Shown here one piece after another: positions 17,919 to 28,820 of a stretch of 64,000 nucleotides of DNA; the stretch's first letter is position 1, and every line of letters starts with the position of its first letter. The notes beneath the pieces were generated by a model. The model ran no database searches. It was not told the origin of the DNA and saw nothing but the letters and a program-made list of their open reading frames with translations. The stretch spans positions 20,638 to 84,637 of the forward strand of contig DAOUJA010000017.1 in assembly GCA_034423175.1 (NCBI GenBank). Direction: 5' to 3'. Source of the DNA: Dehalococcoidia bacterium. GTDB lineage: Bacteria; Chloroflexota; Dehalococcoidia; Lucifugimonadales; Australimonadaceae. The position numbers and the translations under genes are program-made.

Positions 17919-18360
17919 CCTCTACAAGGACATCATCCTGGACCACTACCGCCGCCCCCGGAACCAGGGCCTGATCCCCGAGCCGGACCTGCAATCGACG
18001 GGCTTCAACCCGTTCTGCGGCGACCAGGTGGTGCTGACCATCAGCCTCGGCGGCGACGGGCGCATCAGCGAGACCAAGTTCGAGGGCGAAGGCTGCTCGA
18101 TCAGCCAGGCGTCAGCCTCGATGCTCACGACGCACCTCTGCGGTCAGACGATCGATGAAGCCGAGGCGCTCGTGCAGACGTTCAAGGGCGTCATGCAGGG
18201 CGAGGAGCTCACGGAAGAGCAGGAGGACGCGCTGGGCGACATCGTGGCGCTGCAGGGCGTGCGGGAGTTCCCCATCCGCATCAAGTGCGCGCTCCTCGGC
18301 TGGACGACGCTCCAGGACGCCATCGCCGACTACCGGAAGTCGCAGACGGATAGAGGATAG
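17893..18360 (+). CDS. sufU: SufU/IscU-like Fe-S scaffold or sulfur acceptor
   Basis: LYKDIILDHYRRPRNQG, NPFCGD, GEGCSISQASASM and KCALLGW. Confidence 0.85.
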   Translation: MQMPDRLDDLYKDIILDHYRRPRNQGLIPEPDLQSTGFNPFCGDQVVLTISLGGDGRISETKFEGEGCSISQASASMLTTHLCGQTIDEAEALVQTFKGVMQGEELTEEQEDALGDIVALQGVREFPIRIKCALLGWTTLQDAIADYRKSQTDRG

Positions 18361-18393
18361 TACCTGTCAGTACCGATTCGTTGCATAGAACTA

Positions 18394-18422
18394 TTGACAA
18401 CCATCGGGAACTCCTGTAGGCT
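18394..18422 (+). promoter_or_regulatory. sigma-70-like promoter (TTGACA-17 nt-TAGGCT) for the ParB-like cassette
   Basis: TTGACA at 18394-18399, an exact 17-nt spacer and TAGGCT at 18417-18422. AGGAGG at 18435-18440 lies 8 nt before the ATG at 18449. Confidence 0.45.
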
Positions 18423-18448
18423 AAAGAAAACCACAGGAGGTGGTCACC

Positions 18449-19465
18449 ATGACCAACAACGGTTCAGTCCCTGTCACGATACGGTTGGGTAACCAGGACT
18501 TCATCTTGGAGAGGAAGGTGGTGCCCATCGATTGGCTGAAACTCGACCCTCGCAACCAGCGCCTCAGCCACGCACTGACCCAAGAGGGCAACACTCCGTC
18601 CGATGCCCGGCTCCAAGAGCTGCTGTGGTCTATCGACGCGGTGAAGGACCTCTACCAAAGCGTCCTTCAGAATGGCGGCCTCATTGACGACCCCATCGTC
18701 ACTCAGGAAGGGGTCGTTGTGGAAGGGAACTCGCGGACGGTCGTACTCCGTGAACTCCATAAGAAGTACCCAGCGGATCCGCGATGGAAAGAGACCTACG
18801 TTCGGCTCCTGCCACCTGACGTTACGCCTGAGCAAATCGTCACTCTGCTGGGAGAACTCCATATCGCAGGAAAGATCGAGTGGCGGGCCTACGAACAGGC
18901 AGAGTACGTCTGGCGCATGAACAAGGAGTTTGGACGCACCTACGATTTCCTCGCTGCCCACTTACGTTGGTCTCGGTCAAAGATAGCCCAGAAGATCGGG
19001 GCCTTCGAGGAAACTCGGGTCTACTTGGCTGAGTATGCTGACCCCCAGGGAGTAAACCGCTTCTCCCACTTTGAAGAGTTCATGAAGAAGAAAGACCTCC
19101 GCGAGCGCCGTGAGAGCGACCCTCTCTTCATGAAGGAGTTCAGACAGTGGGTGCATCAAGGGAAGTTCCCAGGCGCAACGGACATGCGCATCCTGCCGGA
19201 CGTGCTCGCGAACGACAAAGCACTAGCAGCGCTCCGAGAGTACAACATCCAATCCGCAGAGGCGGTTTTGAATGACGCTGACCCCTCGCGGAATTCCGAT
19301 CTGTACTACAGCGTTGACCAGACATGTCAGCAGCTTCGCAACGTGCCTCTCTCGGAAGTCAAGGCACTTCAGCACGGCTCTCCCACAAAGCTTGCGAAAC
19401 TCGCTGAACTACAAGCCGCTCTCGATGAACTGGCGCAGATGGCAGGGATCAGCGTGAGGCGCTAG
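18449..19465 (+). CDS. ParB/Srx N-terminal-domain protein with HTH
   Basis: VPIDWLKLDPRNQR, DPIVTQEGVVVEGNSRTVVLREL and a candidate HTH YDFLAAHLRWSRSKIAQKI. G+C about 53-56 percent. Confidence 0.7.
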   Translation: MTNNGSVPVTIRLGNQDFILERKVVPIDWLKLDPRNQRLSHALTQEGNTPSDARLQELLWSIDAVKDLYQSVLQNGGLIDDPIVTQEGVVVEGNSRTVVLRELHKKYPADPRWKETYVRLLPPDVTPEQIVTLLGELHIAGKIEWRAYEQAEYVWRMNKEFGRTYDFLAAHLRWSRSKIAQKIGAFEETRVYLAEYADPQGVNRFSHFEEFMKKKDLRERRESDPLFMKEFRQWVHQGKFPGATDMRILPDVLANDKALAALREYNIQSAEAVLNDADPSRNSDLYYSVDQTCQQLRNVPLSEVKALQHGSPTKLAKLAELQAALDELAQMAGISVRR

Positions 19466-19467
19466 CC

Positions 19468-19692
19468 ATGGAAGACAAGGTCATCAGCCGGCTCCGCAAG
19501 AACGCATCAGAAGAAATCAGAATCGCGTTTCGCGAATACCACGGCAGAAAACTTGTTGACATACGCATATTTGCCGGACCACGTGGGCAAGAGACCGTAC
19601 CCACTCCGAAAGGAGTCAGCGTACCCATAGAGATATTCGGCGAGTTCAAGAACGCCATCGACGACGCGGAGGAGTTTCTTGAGCAGAGGTAG
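19468..19692 (+). CDS. PC4/YdbC-like ssDNA-binding protein (74 aa)
   Basis: The pattern EEIRIAFREYHGRKLVDIRIF...TPKGVSVPIEIFGEFKNAI resembles bacterial PC4-fold proteins. It starts 2 nt after the upstream stop and has a GAGG SD. Confidence 0.5.
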   Translation: MEDKVISRLRKNASEEIRIAFREYHGRKLVDIRIFAGPRGQETVPTPKGVSVPIEIFGEFKNAIDDAEEFLEQR

Positions 19693-19694
19693 CA

Positions 19695-19747
19695 GGGGTA
19701 GAACGAACGCAGGCTTGGCGATGCCCAGCCTGCGTTCGTTCTACCCC
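19695..19747. terminator. perfect 20-bp-stem hairpin between convergent genes (bidirectional terminator candidate)
   Basis: ggggtagaacgaacgcaggc (19695-19714) pairs perfectly with gcctgcgttcgttctacccc (19728-19747). There is no U-tract. Confidence 0.55.
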
Positions 19748-19830
19748 TCGTCCCCTGCGGCGACCGCCGTCCTTCAGGCGGCACAGTCCAGGCGTGCCCC
19801 GCATCACCGTCGGCATGGCGCACCGCATCC

Positions 19831-20256
19831 TCACAAGACCCATAAACGCACGCGGTAGCACGGTCCACCGCCGGATTCCTCCCGGTAACGAACCTCCCGA
19901 ATCTGCCGGTCATCCTGATACAGCATCACCTCGGCGAGGGTCTCGAGGTGGCTAAGGTCGGCATTCACTCGGCGAGCTTGGAGTGCATCAGCAACGCCGC
20001 CGAGGAAGTTCGTGGCATCGGCGCGATCGTTCATCCCCGCAGGTTTGCCCGACGGTTCGGCCACGACAAGTTCGAGTCCAACGTGCCTCGCTTCAGGCGG
20101 CTGCCAATTCGAGCCAGGCAATGCTGCCTGCGCTGCCTCAAGAAGCGTTCGTACACGGGATGCAGAGCCGTGAGTCGGATTGAACATGGACAGTGCCTCA
20201 CCCTTAGCAGGAGGCCAGCCGTCCACATCAAACTCTATGCTCGGCGCGTTACTCAT
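19831..20256 (-). CDS. RusA-like Holliday junction resolvase fold protein
   Basis: FDVDGWPPAKGEA, DRADATNFLGGVADAL and YQDDRQIREVRY match the RusA pattern DxxNxxKxxxDAL...DDxQV by eye. The start overlaps the ybjQ stop. Confidence 0.5.
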   Translation of the reverse strand: MSNAPSIEFDVDGWPPAKGEALSMFNPTHGSASRVRTLLEAAQAALPGSNWQPPEARHVGLELVVAEPSGKPAGMNDRADATNFLGGVADALQARRVNADLSHLETLAEVMLYQDDRQIREVRYREESGGGPCYRVRLWVL

Positions 20257-20569
20257 CCTCCACGACGACGGCGGTGCCATAGGCGAGCAGTTCCGACGCG
20301 CCCGTCATCACCATGGACGTGACGAAGCGCATGCCGACTACGGCGTTCGCTCCCAGGCCCTCGGCCTGCTCCACCATCCTCGAGATGGCCTGCTCGCGCG
20401 ACTCGGCCATGAGGCGCGTGTACTCCGTCACCTCGCCGCCCACGATGTTGCGCAGGCCGGCGACGATGTCGCGTCCGATGTTGCGCGCGCGGATCGTGTT
20501 GCCCTGCACGAGGCCCTTCACCTCGGTGATGCGCTTCCCGGGGACCTGGTCGGATGTGGCAAGAATCAT
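20249..20569 (-). CDS. ybjQ: YbjQ/UPF0145 family protein
   Basis: GKRITEVKGLVQGNTIRARNIGRDIVAGLRNIVGGEVTEYTRLMAESREQAISRMVEQAEGLGANAVVGMRF. Confidence 0.85.
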   Translation of the reverse strand: MILATSDQVPGKRITEVKGLVQGNTIRARNIGRDIVAGLRNIVGGEVTEYTRLMAESREQAISRMVEQAEGLGANAVVGMRFVTSMVMTGASELLAYGTAVVVEDE

Positions 20570-23789: not shown

Positions 23790-25338
23790 ATGAACCCGGA
23801 AGACCAGGCCCGTGAACACATAGACCAGATGCTTCGCGACAGCGGCTGGGTCGTTCAAGACTACAAGGCCATCAACCTGTACGCGGGGCTCGGGGTAGCA
23901 GTTCGGGAGTTCGTTCTGAAGGACGGGCATGGCCGTGCGGACTACCTGCTGTACGTAGACCAAGCCGCGGTCGGCGTCGTGGAGGCGAAGCCCGTGGGCC
24001 ACACGCTCTCTGGCGTGGAGACGCAGACGGACAAGTACAGCGACGGTCTGCCCGACGAGTTGCCGTATTACCGCAAACCGCTGCCCTTTCTCTACCAGAG
24101 CACCGGCGTAGAGACGTGCTTCACGAACCTGTACGACCCCGACCCGCGCAGCAGGTCGCTCTTCACGTTCCACAGGCCCGAGACGATTGCAGAGTGGCTG
24201 GGCGTGGGTCCGCACGACGCGGGGCTGCAGGCCGCGGAGATCAAACGCGCTCCCTTCGTGACCACGTTCCTTGTTGCGATGCAGAACAACATGCCCCTGT
24301 TGGACACGCAGGGGTTATGGGGCGCACAGATCAACGCCATAAGCAACGTGGAGCGTTCCCTTGCGAGAGGAGACCCGCGCTTGCTCGTCCAGATGGCAAC
24401 CGGCAGCGGGAAGACCCGAATGGCCTGCGCCCTCGCCTACCGGCTCATCAGGTACGCAGGGGTAAAGCGCATCCTCTTCCTCGTGGACCGGAGCAACCTG
24501 GCGCGGCAGACGTTCCGCGAGTTCCAGGGCTACGACACGCCGGACGACGGCCGGAAGTTCACGGAACTCTACAACGTGCAGCACCTGCGCTCGGACCGCA
24601 TAGACCGGGTCAGCAACGTGTGCATCTCCACCATCCAGCGCGTCTACTCCATCCTCAAGGGAGAGCCCCTGGACGAAGAATGGGATGAGAGGTCCACCTA
24701 CGAAGCGGGGATGCTTCAGGGGGCGCAGGCAACGGTGGAGTACAACCCCTCCGTTCCCATCGAAACGTTCGACATCATCATTGTCGACGAGACGCACCGC
24801 TCCATCTACAACCTCTGGCGGCAGGTGCTGGAGTACTTCGACGCGCGGCTCATCGGGCTCACCGCCACGCCGTCCAAGCAGACCTTCGGCTTCTTCAGGC
24901 AGAACCTCGTTATGGAGTACGGCCGCGAGCAGGCTGTCGCAGACGGCGTCAACGTCGACTTCGACGTCTTCCGCATCAGGACGGAGATCACAGAGGGAGG
25001 CAGCACGGTAGAGGCGGGCTACTACGTGGACAAGCGCGACCGCGAGACGCGCGCCGTCCGGTGGGAGAAGCTGGACGACGACCTCGAATACGCGGCGTCG
25101 GACCTCGACCGGAGCGTCGTCGCGGAGGACCAGATACGCACCGTGCTGCAGGCGTTCAGGGAAGGCCTGCCAACGATGTTCCCGGGCCGTGATGACGTGC
25201 CGAAGACGCTCATCTTCGCCAAGGACGACAGCCACGCCGAGGACATCGTGCGCATCGCCAGGGAGGTGTTCGGCAAGGGCAACGAGTTCTGCCAGAAGAT
25301 CACGTACAAGACGACGGGCGCGAAGCCGGAGGACCTCC
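23790..25338 (+). pseudogene. hsdR: type I restriction R-subunit-like nuclease/helicase, 3'-truncated
   Basis: PD-(D/E)xK-like GRADYLLYVD...VGVVEAK and helicase motifs MATGSGKT, IIVDETHRS and LTATP. The sensible frame ends after KITYKTTGAKPEDLL, before motifs V/VI. Confidence 0.7.
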
Positions 25339-26238
25339 TCCACCGCACTCGCCCGCGCCGAGGGCCGCGACTACGAGCACGCGTCTGTATTGTTGGAGCG
25401 GATCGCGAAAGAGCGTCAGGCCCGGTGGGAATCCAGTGATAAGAGGCGAGGTCAGTACAAGGCACCCACTACACCAGACACTTCCATTCTGCCAGAACTT
25501 CCTCCAGGATGGGTTTGGGGTAGCATAGAGCAGATATCTGAAGTTGGCACAGGCTCCACTCCCCTCAAATCCCGATCGGAATTCTATGCGAATGGAACCG
25601 TCCCTTGGGCTACCAGTTCAGCGTTAAATCACCCTGAAATCCGTGCTCCCATAAGCTTTGTTACGGAGAAAGCCGTCCAAGAGTGCCATCTGTCGTACTA
25701 TCCGCCGCACACTTTGCTTGTCGCAATGTATGGCGAGGGCAGGACGCGTGGTAAGTGCGCCGAATTGATGTTCCACTCAACAATCAATCAGGCAATTGCC
25801 GCAATAGTAATGGAAGAATCTGCTGCGAACTGTCGTCACTACACTAAACTGTTTCTCGAAAGCAACTACATAGAGACTCGGCGGCTCTCTTCGGGTGGAG
25901 TACAACCGAATCTAAACCTCACATTGATTAAGGAGATTGCTGTTCCACTGCCGCCCTCGGCAGAGCAACTACGCATCATCGCGGAGGTGGATCGAAGACT
26001 GTCGGTAGCAGGGCAGGCCGAGGCTGCGCTTGAGGCCAACCTGAAGCGCGCCGAGCGGCTGCGGCAGGCCATCCTCAAACGCGCGTTCGAGGGTCGGCTC
26101 GTTCCCCGGGACCCGGACGACGAGCCCGCCTCGGTGCTGCTGGAGCGTATCAGGACGGAGAAGGCGAGCAAAGAGCGGGAGAGGCCAGGGAGGAGGAGAC
26201 TGGAATATCTAGTACCTACGAGTGAGTATGCGGAATAG
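25339..26238 (+). pseudogene. hsdS: type I specificity subunit fragment (central conserved region, one TRD, C-terminal conserved region)
   Basis: ASVLLERIAKERQ...LPPGWVWGSIEQISEVGTGSTP...GGVQPNLNLTLIKEIAVPLPPSAEQLRIIAEV...ASVLLERIRTEKA. There is no ATG between the junction and the TRD. The G+C falls to about 50 percent in the TRD. Confidence 0.6.
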
Positions 26239-27202
26239 CCACCCACTGGCGCTGCGGCACCATGTTGATTCCCCTCTTTATGCATCTCGTGATTAGCATC
26301 CTCCCGTCAAGCCTGGAATCTTCTGCTGCGTTCATGTAGTGACTGATAACAGAATCTATTGTGCTTTCTGTTTCTGGGTCGTCTATGAGCAATCCCAATC
26401 TGATCATACCTCCCATGCTATGGTGGGTGCCGAAACTCACATAGTCGAACAAGTCGCGATTCATAACGAATTGGTAGATGGCAGGATATTCAAGCGACGT
26501 GAATGGACTCCATTCGTGCATATCGCACCAATCCTTGACAGTTGTTGGAGTTTTATTGGCGCGAGAAGGGTGCGCGCAGAAACCTTCTTCAATGCCCCAG
26601 AGGACCATTCCCATGGTGTTGTCGGGTTGGTAGTGCTGGCAATTTTGACAAGCTGCGCCACCGTGACGGTCAAATGGCGTTCCCGTTTCAGGGAGTAGTG
26701 TAATCAGCCTCCAGTGTTTCATGTTGCTTACAAACACAGCCCTATGAGGCACACCGTCTATGAAGCCTTGCAACACCAATCTTATTTCGCCATTCTTATC
26801 CTCTTCTCGGAGCGGCACCGCGTTAGCAAAATCAAACCTGCTGATCTCTGGCCAATCCGTTCTCTTTCCGTCATCTTTCGATGCGTGGTACCGTCGGTTT
26901 CTCTTACTCCACTCGACAATACCGAACGGCGTGGCGATTGCTTGGCTGTCGCAATGCGGGCATACCTCCAGCTGGCCACCTGTGGACAACCAAGCATGAA
27001 TGCCGTCAGGGGCACGTTCGCACTTGCCGTCGCGTGCCCTTCGTTCCTTCTCCATCAGTGCGTCGCGGTCGTAAACGCTCATCAGGTTTGCGCATCGCTC
27101 ACACCAGCGCGCGCCAAGCGAAAGCCTCTCGGCTACGATGCCGTCTGCATCGCCACAGAGAGCGCCGCCATTAGGGCGAACCTTATGAACAACGACGGAC
27201 AT
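26216..27202 (-). CDS. Cys-rich hypothetical protein (328 aa), no family recognised
   Basis: AAGGGAG SD 7 nt before the ATG. Three CxxC pairs (CERC, CPHC, CQNC). G+C about 50 percent. The 3' end overlaps the hsdS fragment's 3' end by 23 nt. Confidence 0.6.
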   Translation of the reverse strand: MSVVVHKVRPNGGALCGDADGIVAERLSLGARWCERCANLMSVYDRDALMEKERRARDGKCERAPDGIHAWLSTGGQLEVCPHCDSQAIATPFGIVEWSKRNRRYHASKDDGKRTDWPEISRFDFANAVPLREEDKNGEIRLVLQGFIDGVPHRAVFVSNMKHWRLITLLPETGTPFDRHGGAACQNCQHYQPDNTMGMVLWGIEEGFCAHPSRANKTPTTVKDWCDMHEWSPFTSLEYPAIYQFVMNRDLFDYVSFGTHHSMGGMIRLGLLIDDPETESTIDSVISHYMNAAEDSRLDGRMLITRCIKRGINMVPQRQWVAIPHTHS

Positions 27203-27341
27203 CCGCGAACTCCCTTTGGGCTGTAACTGCCCACTGACAACAGTCTACCGCACCGCCTTGTGAACAGAGACCTTGGCGTAGCTCGTCACGGAGCGCGGGC
27301 TGCGAGCGGTGCGTTATCCTGACGCTCCTCTGGAGGGGCGC

Positions 27342-28820
27342 ATGACGACGAACGGCCAGATCGGGCAGAAGGTGTGGAGCTACTGCAACGTCCTGCGGGA
27401 TGCGGGGCTCTCCTACGGCGACTACCTGGAGCAGATCACCTACCTGCTCTTTCTCAAGATGATGGACGAGCGCTCCAAGCCGCCGTACACGCTCATGCCC
27501 GGGCACGTTCCGCCGCCGATACCGGAGCACCACAACTGGCAGAGCTTGGTGGAGTTGGACGGGCCGGACTTGGAAACGCACTACCGCTCTACGCTGGCCG
27601 CGCTGGGGCGGGAGCGGGGGGCGCTGGGCCTCATCTTCCGCAGGGCGCAGAACAAGGTGCAGGACCCCGCGATGCTGCGCCGCCTCGTGGTCGACCTCGT
27701 CGGCACGGAGAACTGGTCGGCGATGGGAAGCGACGTGAAGGGCAGCGTCTACGAGGAGCTGCTGGAGCGGTACGCGCAGGACGTTAAAGCGGGTGCGGGG
27801 CAGTACTTCACGCCCCGCTCGCTCATCGCCGCCATCGTGGACGTGATGCACCCCGAGCCGGACACGACGGTCTGTGACCCCGCAGCCGGCACAGGCGGCT
27901 TTCTCCTCCGCGCCCACGACTACATCGTCGAGCACAATCCTCACCTGAGCAAGGATGAACTCGACGCGCTGAAGAACGACGCGCTCTCCGGCTGGGAGAT
28001 CGTGCAGCAGACGGCACGGCTCTGCGTGATGAACCTCTACCTGCACGGCATCGGCGGGGACGAGCCCACCATCACTGTGGACGACAGTCTTCGCTCCCGC
28101 CACGGCGAGTACGGGATGGTGCTCACCAATCCGCCGTTCGGCAAGAAGTCGTCGCTGTCGTACGGGCTGGACGAGGACGGGGCCGACGACGACCTCCTCG
28201 TGGAGCGGGATGACTTCTGGGCCACAACGAAGAACAAGCAGCTGAACTTCCTGCAGCACGTGCGCTCCATCCTGAAGATCAACGGGCGCGCCGCCATTGT
28301 GGTGCCGGACAACGTGCTGTTCGAGGGCGGCGCGGGCGAGACGATACGCAAGCGCCTGCTGCACGAGTGCGACGTCCATACGCTGCTGCGCCTACCGACC
28401 GGCATCTTCTACGCGCAGGGCGTCAAAGCGAACGTGCTCTTCTTCGACCGCAAACCCGCAAGCGAGACGCCGTGGACGAAGATGCTCTGGATATACGACC
28501 TGCGCACGAACAAGCACTTCACGCTCAAGACGAAACAGATGGGCCGTGCCGACCTCGACGATTTCGTGGCCTGCTTCAATCCCGCCAATCGCTACGAGCG
28601 GCAGGAGACGGAGCGTTTCCATTCTTTCTCCTATGATGACCTCGTCAAGCGCGACAAGGTCAACATGGACATCACCTGGCTCCGCGACGAGAGCGTCGAG
28701 GACGCCGCGTCGCTCCCGGAGCCGGAGGCGCTGGCGGAGGAGATCGTCGAGGACCTGCAGACGGCGCTGGACCAGTTCGCCGCGATCAGCGCGGACCTTG
28801 GCGCGGAGGCCTCTTCATGA
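27342..28820 (+). CDS. hsdM: type I R-M N6-adenine DNA methyltransferase subunit
   Basis: HsdM N-terminal domain (IGQKVWSYCNVLRDAGLSYGDYLEQITYLLFLKMM), motif I DPAAGTGGFL and motif IV NPPFG. Confidence 0.9.
   Translation: MTTNGQIGQKVWSYCNVLRDAGLSYGDYLEQITYLLFLKMMDERSKPPYTLMPGHVPPPIPEHHNWQSLVELDGPDLETHYRSTLAALGRERGALGLIFRRAQNKVQDPAMLRRLVVDLVGTENWSAMGSDVKGSVYEELLERYAQDVKAGAGQYFTPRSLIAAIVDVMHPEPDTTVCDPAAGTGGFLLRAHDYIVEHNPHLSKDELDALKNDALSGWEIVQQTARLCVMNLYLHGIGGDEPTITVDDSLRSRHGEYGMVLTNPPFGKKSSLSYGLDEDGADDDLLVERDDFWATTKNKQLNFLQHVRSILKINGRAAIVVPDNVLFEGGAGETIRKRLLHECDVHTLLRLPTGIFYAQGVKANVLFFDRKPASETPWTKMLWIYDLRTNKHFTLKTKQMGRADLDDFVACFNPANRYERQETERFHSFSYDDLVKRDKVNMDITWLRDESVEDAASLPEPEALAEEIVEDLQTALDQFAAISADLGAEASS

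Follow-up and report, generated by a model that had tools for sequence, protein, structure and literature searches.

In a 64,000-nucleotide (nt) stretch of a Dehalococcoidia bacterium genome (assembly GCA_034423175.1, contig DAOUJA010000017.1, positions 20,638 to 84,637), which we call the window, we analysed a compact cassette at positions 18359-19748. It holds two plus-strand genes, one for a predicted, divergent ParB-superfamily protein (gene 1) and one for a PC4-family protein (gene 2), together with its own promoter-like element, short upstream repeats and a hairpin at its right end.

A compact cassette of foreign composition

The cassette begins where sufU ends. Two AGTACC repeats lie 10 bp apart on the plus strand at 18359-18364 and 18369-18374 (GATAGTACCTGTCAGTACCGATT), overlapping the sufU stop codon (18358-18360), and we propose them as operator or loading sites. 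They are followed by a promoter-like element (18394-18422, plus strand) composed of TTGACA (18394-18399), a 17-nt spacer and TAGGCT (18417-18422), which is also present in relatives. The ribosome-binding site AGGAGG (18436-18441) stands 7 nt 5' of the gene 1 start, and a GGAGG-type motif is kept at this place in relatives. Gene 1 (18449-19465) encodes 338 amino acids (aa) from the ATG at 18449; an alternative start, the GTG at 18440, would give 341 aa, and the ATG is preferred because it has the better ribosome-binding site. Gene 2 (19468-19692) encodes 74 aa from the ATG at 19468. It begins 2 nt past the stop of gene 1 and, given this gap, is probably translationally coupled to it.

The right end of the cassette is formed by a hairpin (19694-19748) with arms at 19694-19719 and 19723-19748. 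Its 26-nt arms are 96% complementary, its folding energy is -54.9 kcal/mol (z = -9.5 against shuffled sequences), and it occurs once in the window, between the cassette and the convergent minus-strand genes on the ybjQ side. The hairpin is not a canonical intrinsic terminator, because it has no T-tract, and it is probably a bidirectional terminator without one. Hairpins of different sequence were also found 3' of the last cassette gene in relatives. An earlier note, made from the letters of this DNA, had described the promoter, the AGGAGG, both open reading frames (ORFs) and an inverted repeat, and we found all of them where it had placed them.

We found that the composition of the cassette is foreign to its surroundings. 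Its G+C content is 56% and its G+C at third codon positions (GC3) is 63-70%, compared with 67-72% and 91-93% around it. Specifically, G+C was 56.4% for 18394-19747, 57.0% for gene 1 and 52.4% for gene 2, and it was 67.0% in the suf operon on one side and 72.1% from ybjQ to mutS2 on the other; GC3 was 70% in gene 1 and 63% in gene 2 versus 91-93% in sufU and sufS. The earlier estimate of 53-56 percent G+C was thus right in direction and slightly low in its figure. No convincing target-site duplications or terminal inverted repeats were found around the cassette. A 20-nt direct repeat of 85% identity does bracket it (18311-18330, TCCAGGACGCCATCGCCGAC; 19646-19665, TCAAGAACGCCATCGACGAC); one copy lies within the 3' end of sufU and the other within that of the PC4 gene, and the bracketing is probably due to chance.

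Three contigs of the same lineage carry the pair directly after sufU, as in the window, with 91% (L024), 84% (L025) and 76% (L026) identity; here and below, L numbers denote individual loci. To the right of the PC4 gene these copies differ. L024 and L026 have a gene for a 281-aa DUF3800 protein 9 nt past PC4, L025 has an unrelated 83-aa ORF, and the window has the hairpin and a minus-strand ORF, seen in no other of the four. The right-hand junction between PC4 and ybjQ (19693-20248, 556 bp) showed no homology among the four contigs. The ratio of nonsynonymous to synonymous substitution rates (dN/dS) was 0.05-0.09 for both genes, with saturated dS, versus 0.22-0.32 for sufU. Both genes are therefore under strong purifying selection, stronger than that on neighbouring sufU. 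Furthermore, the dS of the cassette (0.95-2.5) was far above that of sufU (0.25-0.8), and the nearest relative depended on the gene: it was L024 for gene 1 (dN 0.05) and L025 for gene 2 (dN 0.10). In gene 2, L024 and L026, which both carry DUF3800, grouped together. The dS excess and the gene-specific relatives suggest recombination within the cassette, re-acquisition or replacement at a fixed site.

These comparisons bear on the proposal, made in the earlier note, that the locus is a remnant of a mobile element. In favour of a decaying, functionless piece of foreign DNA, the cassette has a G+C content below that of its host, lacks the third gene carried by two relatives and ends in a junction without homology among relatives. 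However, decay is not supported, because both genes are intact and under the strong purifying selection described above; the promoter, repeats and ribosome-binding site are conserved as well. We therefore strongly disfavour decay, which we consider scarcely credible.

Two proteins with ParB-like and PC4 folds and their linkage across phyla

The protein encoded by gene 1 consists, in order, of an N-terminal beta-hairpin, a ParB-N-like domain, a helix-turn-helix (HTH) and a helical C-terminal region, with the motifs LDPRNQR, QNGGLIDDPI, VEGNSRT, GELHIAGK and RWSRSKIAQKI. We assessed motif conservation and built an AlphaFold2 (AF2) model from a 29-sequence alignment, in which LDPxNQR, QNGGLIxDPI, VEGN[C/S]RT, GELH[I/V]AGK and the HTH helix RWSRSKIAQKI were invariant. 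Box II of the family is E92-G93-N94-x-R96-T97 (EGN[C/S]RT) in place of GERRxR, which bears out the earlier observation that GNSR replaces the GERR patch of ParB, and GELH[I/V]AGK stands at the place of ENxxR (Box III). The model had a mean predicted local distance difference test score (pLDDT) of 90.4. When it was compared with the PDB by Foldseek, all 14 matches at E <= 1e-3 were ParB, Noc, KorB, Spo0J or pNOB8 ParB-N. The top matches (E = 3.5e-5 to 1e-3) extended over 211-273 aligned columns, that is, the ParB-N domain plus the HTH, and included the ParB proteins of M. xanthus, C. crescentus and B. subtilis as well as the KorB-KorA complex (8qa9; template-modelling (TM) scores 0.39/0.57). 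The HTH-only structures 6s6h, 1r71 and 3mkz matched weakly, and the parB_part model TIGR00180 gave a weak match to the HTH at residues 146-183. Together with the motifs, these matches of the model identify the protein as a real but strongly divergent member of the ParB superfamily, with the ParB N-terminal-like domain and HTH that had been recognised before. Its nucleotide pocket is probably a modified ParB-type pocket, and we propose that it gates the protein by nucleotide binding.

At the level of sequence the divergence was pronounced. A Pfam scan gave no match to ParB_N (PF02195) and nothing at the gathering level, the only match being ddrB-ParB at 17.2 bits (cut-off 27.6; E = 0.006). Since a PDB sequence search also gave no match, the protein has no solved relative by sequence. 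We tried to establish direct sequence kinship to canonical ParB_N with hhalign, and only the Box-I-like stretch, LDPxNQR, aligned with Box I of a canonical ParB_N protein; no relation of the family to two DndB-like proteins was detected in the same way, and both are weak tests made with single target sequences. Two matches to PHROG families of unknown function were weak or partial. Among PADLOC profiles, the N-terminal part matched PDC-M38A (1e-9, 220 of 715 profile positions) and, again partially, PD-Lambda-5_A (1e-3). We take the latter to be a fusion of ParB-N with a methyltransferase whose matched part is ParB-like; its paper says only 'methyltransferase'. A word search returned at least 224 homologues, all of about 340 aa, unnamed and without Pfam domains. 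The wider family comprises 1502 cluster representatives at 50% identity, and the top-scoring ones are mostly full-length, again about 340 aa.

The 74-aa protein is a true PC4-family member, as the earlier note had supposed when it likened the ORF to PC4 and YdbC proteins. It matched Pfam PC4 (PF02229) with 37.2 bits against a cut-off of 25 (E = 2e-9), and its family profile matched BPSL1147 (2.9e-12), human PC4 (1.4e-8) and the PC4-like protein of phage T5. The AF2 model (pLDDT 93.6) contained four antiparallel strands and a C-terminal helix (E4-10, E15-24, E27-36, E44-53 and H54-73 by DSSP). By Foldseek it superposed on BPSL1147 (5a4n) with TM scores of 0.79/0.85 and a root-mean-square deviation of 2.0 Å; the two proteins are 33% identical. 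A PADLOC scan of this protein gave no match. PC4 homologues are homodimeric binders of single-stranded DNA (ssDNA) (PMC7145681), and we predict the same activity here.

To collect further copies, one genome per species and the JGI metagenomes were scanned, which yielded about 100 loci. Among them, 66 non-redundant loci had a high-scoring gene 1 homologue with room downstream, and in 65 of these a PC4 ORF followed directly on the same strand, as would be expected of a pair conserved together. The partner was a single-domain PC4 protein of 74-81 aa in 21 of the 65 loci, which fall in the clade that includes the window, and a tandem PC4-PC4 protein of 142-166 aa in the other 44. Such fusion is expected if the dimer is the functional unit, because PC4 proteins work as homodimers (PMC7145681), and it would give a single-chain pseudo-dimer. 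Clustering of all neighbours revealed no third conserved gene. The pair was present in at least seven bacterial phyla, with hosts among Acidobacteriota, delta- and gamma-proteobacteria, Dehalococcoidia, Gemmatimonadota, Verrucomicrobiota and Planctomycetota, at 49-66% identity. Among the clusters at 50% identity, one representative scored 605 bits and the next best only 355. This gap, together with the spread over phyla, suggests one tight clade that has recently and rapidly moved between phyla. Furthermore, the G+C content of the cassette was below that of its surroundings in eight of nine other loci tested, L010 being the exception.

We then found that the upstream DNA is conserved along with the genes. 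In 60 non-redundant upstream regions TTGACA occurred 39 times against 3.0 expected and was found in 35 of the regions, across phyla. Hexamers with a GTAC core (TAGTAC, AGTACT, CAGTAC and AGTACC) occurred 24-36 times against about 3 expected (z = 10-14), and the density of AGTAC/GTACT was 12.6 per kb in the 150 nt upstream versus 1.0-1.3 per kb in gene bodies and distant flanks. The repeats have the palindrome-like consensus YRGTACYA. They are concentrated in two zones, one 10-40 bp upstream of the -35 hexamer and the other, counted from its start, 6-40 bp downstream. Their spacings peak at 8-11, 18-21 and 26-31 bp, each a multiple of the helical turn. In the window, AGTACC at 18359 and 18369 is followed by GAACTATTGACA. 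TTGACA is invariant in L024, L025 and L026, with a TAnnCT -10 hexamer 17-18 nt further on. A generic sigma-70 scan did not call the window promoter, because TAGGCT matches TATAAT at only three of six positions. In one subclade, TAGTCT- or TAGTAT-like variants replace the GTAC repeats. We read the array (TAGTACTA-type repeats) as a putative operator or loading site of the ParB-like HTH protein, because intergenic DNA would not remain recognisable at 50-65% protein identity without constraint. The phased array, the tandem PC4 variants and the variable third gene of close relatives had been missed in the earlier note. Collectively, these data indicated that the pair is inherited and transferred as a unit with its TTGACA promoter in phased YRGTACYA repeats, and that the cassette is an autonomous, horizontally acquired and selectively maintained two-gene operon with its own portable cis elements.

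Relatives were also sought among phages and plasmids. In 50,697 phage records there was no relative of gene 1, and the sole match on a viral contig (L028) was 36% identical and belonged to a different system; phage cargo is therefore rejected, in line with the absence of prophage flanks. Among 72,556 plasmids no relative of gene 1 exceeded 36% identity, the matches belonging to a different multi-gene system, and tandem PC4 had no match. We thus rejected a plasmid origin, to which only distant relatives from this other system could be linked. The distant relatives (L012-L020, L107-L108, L112-L121, L028 and L122; 35-38% identity) occur as three tandem paralogues of about 345 aa. In L122 (Bradyrhizobium sp. 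187 plasmid p187_1, 7815-17201) they are accompanied by a small protein, a DEAD/SNF2-type helicase, a GHKL-type 'ATP-binding protein', a radical-SAM protein and a DGQHR/DndB-like protein. Most of this conserved set recurs in the metagenome loci, and no PC4 gene is present in the tandem-paralogue loci. The set appears to be a system of its own, as yet uncharacterised and resembling those of defence or modification. Intermediate relatives (L105, L109 and L111; 37-38% identity) are single ParB-like genes, each accompanied by a small HTH-like ORF of 67-81 aa and by a nearby gene on the opposite strand that is radical-SAM-like (about 380 aa, motif GCIRRCxFC). A DGQHR-like gene is present as well in L105, and a canonical ParB_N-like gene in L109.

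These searches also weigh on the possibility that the pair maintains or establishes a mobile element, with a KorB/ParB-like regulator or partition adaptor and an ssDNA-binding protein guarding or organising incoming or replicating element DNA, much like a plasmid leading-region or anti-restriction module; the window copy would then be a stranded fragment of such an element. Frequent horizontal transfer and atypical G+C content fit this proposal, as do the weak ddrB-ParB match (phage P1 Dar-type), the KorB-KorA complex among the best structural matches and integrases near three loci. At one place, represented by four copies (L036-L039), the pair lies between a gene for a single-stranded-DNA-binding protein (SSB) and a ParA-like (CbiA/AAA_31) gene. 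However, the plasmid and phage results run counter to it, in most loci the cassette stands alone among housekeeping genes, with no transfer, replication or integrase gene, and the strong purifying selection in a chromosomal setting speaks against a stranded fragment. We consider this explanation unlikely.

Attached genes and proposed function

Next, we examined the genes around the pair. Many copies are lone cassettes among housekeeping genes, such as suf and ybjQ in the window, comEC and lexA in L034, and the vicinity of metK in L029. In about 15 of 53 loci a same-strand gene starts within 60 nt past the PC4 stop, and those attached genes that could be annotated were mostly of defence type. 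They encode a CAP12/Pycsar-type TIR protein in L049, a UvrD/GajB-like helicase in L065, an Mrr_N protein in L089, an EcoRI-type methylase with GmrSD/DUF262-HNH in L007 and L041, and the DUF3800 protein in L024 and L026. A set comprising a C5-methylase, a GHKL ATPase (HATPase_c_3), an Mrr_cat-helicase and a Vsr-like ORF, the last named from its sequence and not by family scan, is represented by six loci (L031, L006, L058, L062, L068 and L074). Integrases, HicB, ParE, Gp49/HTH and restriction-modification (R-M) genes also lie near the pair in some loci. In a Zixibacteria metagenome-assembled genome (L040:112-4607) a tandem PC4 protein comes directly after a DndB-family protein (PF14072), together with a TPR-like protein of 907 aa, and RmuC, DUF4268 and WYL genes lie nearby. 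This arrangement is an independent link of the ParB superfamily with PC4.

Eight loci (L031, L006, L058, L060, L062, L067, L068 and L074) have the pair without its own TTGACA/GTAC promoter, embedded in a longer co-directional gene set. Pooled over its members, this subgroup comprises a CBS-domain protein (391 aa), a 98-aa protein, the ParB-like protein, tandem PC4, the C5-methylase, the GHKL ATPase, the Mrr_cat-helicase and the Vsr-like ORF; the full set was seen in no single locus, and an integrase sometimes adjoins.

Some neighbours point to a host accessory factor for DNA repair, recombination or replication restart, in which PC4 would act as an SSB-like protein, as in the recombination-dependent replication of phage T5, recruited or regulated by the ParB-like protein. 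MutS2 in the window, LexA and ComEC, RarA/MgsA in L004, SSB and RmuC are all found near the pair, and members of the PC4 family are known to act on ssDNA during repair and replication (PMC7145681; T5 homologue 4bg7). However, these repair genes vary from locus to locus and are not conserved, and the attached genes are of R-M or effector types rather than repair enzymes. Patchy phylum-hopping, a tight clade and a composition foreign to each host are also not the pattern of a core repair gene. A repair role is decidedly unlikely on this evidence.

A pair of coupled genes behind a strong promoter with operator-like repeats, sporadically spread and found in variable regions beside other toxin-antitoxin and R-M genes, could also be toxin-antitoxin-like. 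One product would inhibit growth, either by binding ssDNA to excess or as an NTPase or nuclease with a ParB fold, and the other would neutralise it and repress the promoter. ParB folds can be toxins, as in CdiA-ToxB (bioRxiv 10.64898/2026.05.05.722872). However, ToxB has no HTH and the gene 1 protein keeps the ParB-type HTH, no likeness to a known toxin or antitoxin family was found for either protein, toxicity is not known for the PC4 fold, and tandem duplication of PC4 and attached effectors would be atypical. We regard this as improbable.

The reading that most likely accounts for the anatomy of the cassette is a two-gene DNA-sensing module. Tentatively, as one possibility among several, we propose that the pair is the autoregulated core of a surveillance system of defence-island type for double-stranded and single-stranded DNA; this core may govern the effectors attached to it or target foreign DNA itself. 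According to this model, a ParB-like dimer would bind the helically phased GTAC repeats through its HTH and autoregulate the operon, with a nucleotide in the modified ParB pocket probably acting as the gate. The PC4 partner would bind DNA that is single-stranded or unwound, for example damaged DNA or the replication intermediates of phages or plasmids, and its contact with the ParB-like protein would change the latter's occupancy of DNA. As a result, the operon and any downstream effector would be de-repressed, or foreign DNA would be directly coated and silenced. Such a core could stand alone, as in the window, or carry swappable effectors. In a bolder version, the pair would be the sensor-regulator core of an unrecognised modular defence family moving between phyla, in which a nucleotide-gated clamp of ParB type sits on the phased GTAC operators, capture of an invader's ssDNA by PC4 releases or re-targets it, and effectors (TIR, GHKL-Mrr, R-M, UvrD-like helicase or DUF3800) are switched on or, where none is attached, the invader is silenced directly. 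This version is doubtful, and we put it forward as a conjecture.

Several observations weigh against a surveillance role. About two-thirds of the loci, the window included, have no attached effector or obvious toxic domain. In PADLOC-DB v2 neither protein matched a validated defence system, the gene 1 hits to PDC-M38A and PD-Lambda-5_A being partial. Since many neighbours are housekeeping genes, the apparent enrichment in defence islands is moderate. The repair and recombination neighbours (MutS2, LexA, RarA/MgsA, SSB and RmuC) fit a repair role equally well, and common descent of the cassette, rather than binding, could account for part of the conservation seen in the repeats.

Both folds have been described before; what appears to be undescribed is their obligate pairing, the divergent ParB clade and the putative operator array. 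ParB-fold NTP switches are increasingly found beyond chromosome segregation, and the present family could escape a survey based on domain models, because no Pfam ParB model matches it. Bacterial PC4 proteins have solved structures and essentially no known biology (PMC7145681). A nearly inseparable pair with its own promoter and operator array in at least seven phyla thus offers a concrete, testable functional context for both protein families. It also yields a specific candidate site on DNA, namely YRGTACYA repeats spaced about 10 bp apart, and defence assays can draw on natural variants in which the core comes with an effector. If true, the sensor model would represent a new coupling of ssDNA detection to a ParB-type switch.

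Two other features of the window lie outside the cassette. Between the hairpin and ybjQ is a minus-strand ORF (19831-20280) of 149 aa, or 118 aa from an internal start, which may not be a real gene. RusA was considered for it and rejected: the match was E = 0.13 in Pfam and E = 0.33 in PHROG, there was no PDB match, and BLASTP against an E. coli RusA sequence gave E = 1.2, so that the ORF was left unassigned. The mutS2-coaE interval (23790-28820) is a second variable spot. It holds a low-G+C (49-58%) set resembling type I R-M, with a 549-aa HsdR-like protein that has helicase domains only and seems truncated, two unannotated ORFs and HsdM; the same interval holds an Eco57I-type enzyme and a ParE toxin in L025 and nothing in L024.

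Comparison with known systems

The CTPase clamps of the ParB, Noc and KorB type are the only significant structural matches of the gene 1 protein. As in ParB/Spo0J, Noc, KorB and pNOB8 ParB, a ParB-type HTH comes after a ParB-N fold. The RWSRSKIAQKI recognition helix resembles that of ParB, and the repeated short palindromic sites beside gene 1 may be compared to KorB operators and parS. In contrast to the clamps, Box II is EGN[S/C]R instead of GERRxR, Box III is GELHIAGK instead of ENxxR, and there are an extra N-terminal beta-hairpin and a long helical tail. Unlike ParB and KorB, the protein has no ParA partner or ParA-binding motif, and its partner is PC4 rather than ParA or KorA. A canonical partition system would have an adjacent parA and a ParA-stimulating N-terminal peptide; here the N-terminus is a predicted beta-hairpin, and no parA, integrase or replication gene was called within 10 kb on either side of gene 1, just as the earlier note had reported. 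Elsewhere, a parA-like gene lies beside the pair at one non-redundant place only (L036-L039), and there it has its own small partner gene. With neither the GERR patch nor a Pfam ParB_N match, the locus was therefore rejected as a canonical partition locus, and the earlier judgement that it does not serve chromosome partition stands.

Gene 2 shares Pfam PF02229 and its fold with the PC4/Sub1/YdbC family, represented by human PC4, BPSL1147 of B. pseudomallei and the PC4-like SSB of phage T5; L. lactis YdbC and S. pneumoniae SP_0782 are further relatives. The tandem fusions at ParB-like loci echo the homodimer through which members of this family bind ssDNA. Unlike described PC4 proteins, gene 2 is obligately paired with a ParB-like gene, and we found no such pairing in the literature. 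Full-text searches returned no paper that links ParB with PC4-like proteins or PC4 with DndB, or that mentions PDC-M38, and a 2025 survey of the ParB-CTPase fold has no mention of PC4 or ssDNA (bioRxiv 10.1101/2025.10.10.680097).

ParB-superfamily NTPase domains also occur in defence and modification, and we compared the pair with DndB/DGQHR, the DUF262 of GmrSD, SspE and NsnA, DpdB, PD-Lambda-5_A and PDC-M38A. Points of likeness are the partial PADLOC matches of gene 1, the R-M-type neighbours and the pairing of a DndB-family protein with tandem PC4 in L040. The [DE]G[QN]xR-type Box II of gene 1 presumably also resembles the DGQHR and DGQQR motifs. Unlike these proteins, gene 1 has no fused nuclease, methylase or DUF1524 domain, and the pair lies outside any dnd, ssp, dpd or Menshen gene set.

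BrxR/CapW and CapH-CapP are portable regulator modules upstream of varied defence operons. The folds of such regulators, RptR and the C-proteins of R-M systems included, are unrelated to those of the pair, and about two-thirds of the pair's copies could regulate only themselves. Like these regulators, however, the pair is small, predicted to bind DNA and proposed to be autoregulated, and many unrelated defence-type genes lie downstream of it in the same direction. A possible input from ssDNA or DNA damage would parallel the sensing by CapP and WYL-type proteins.

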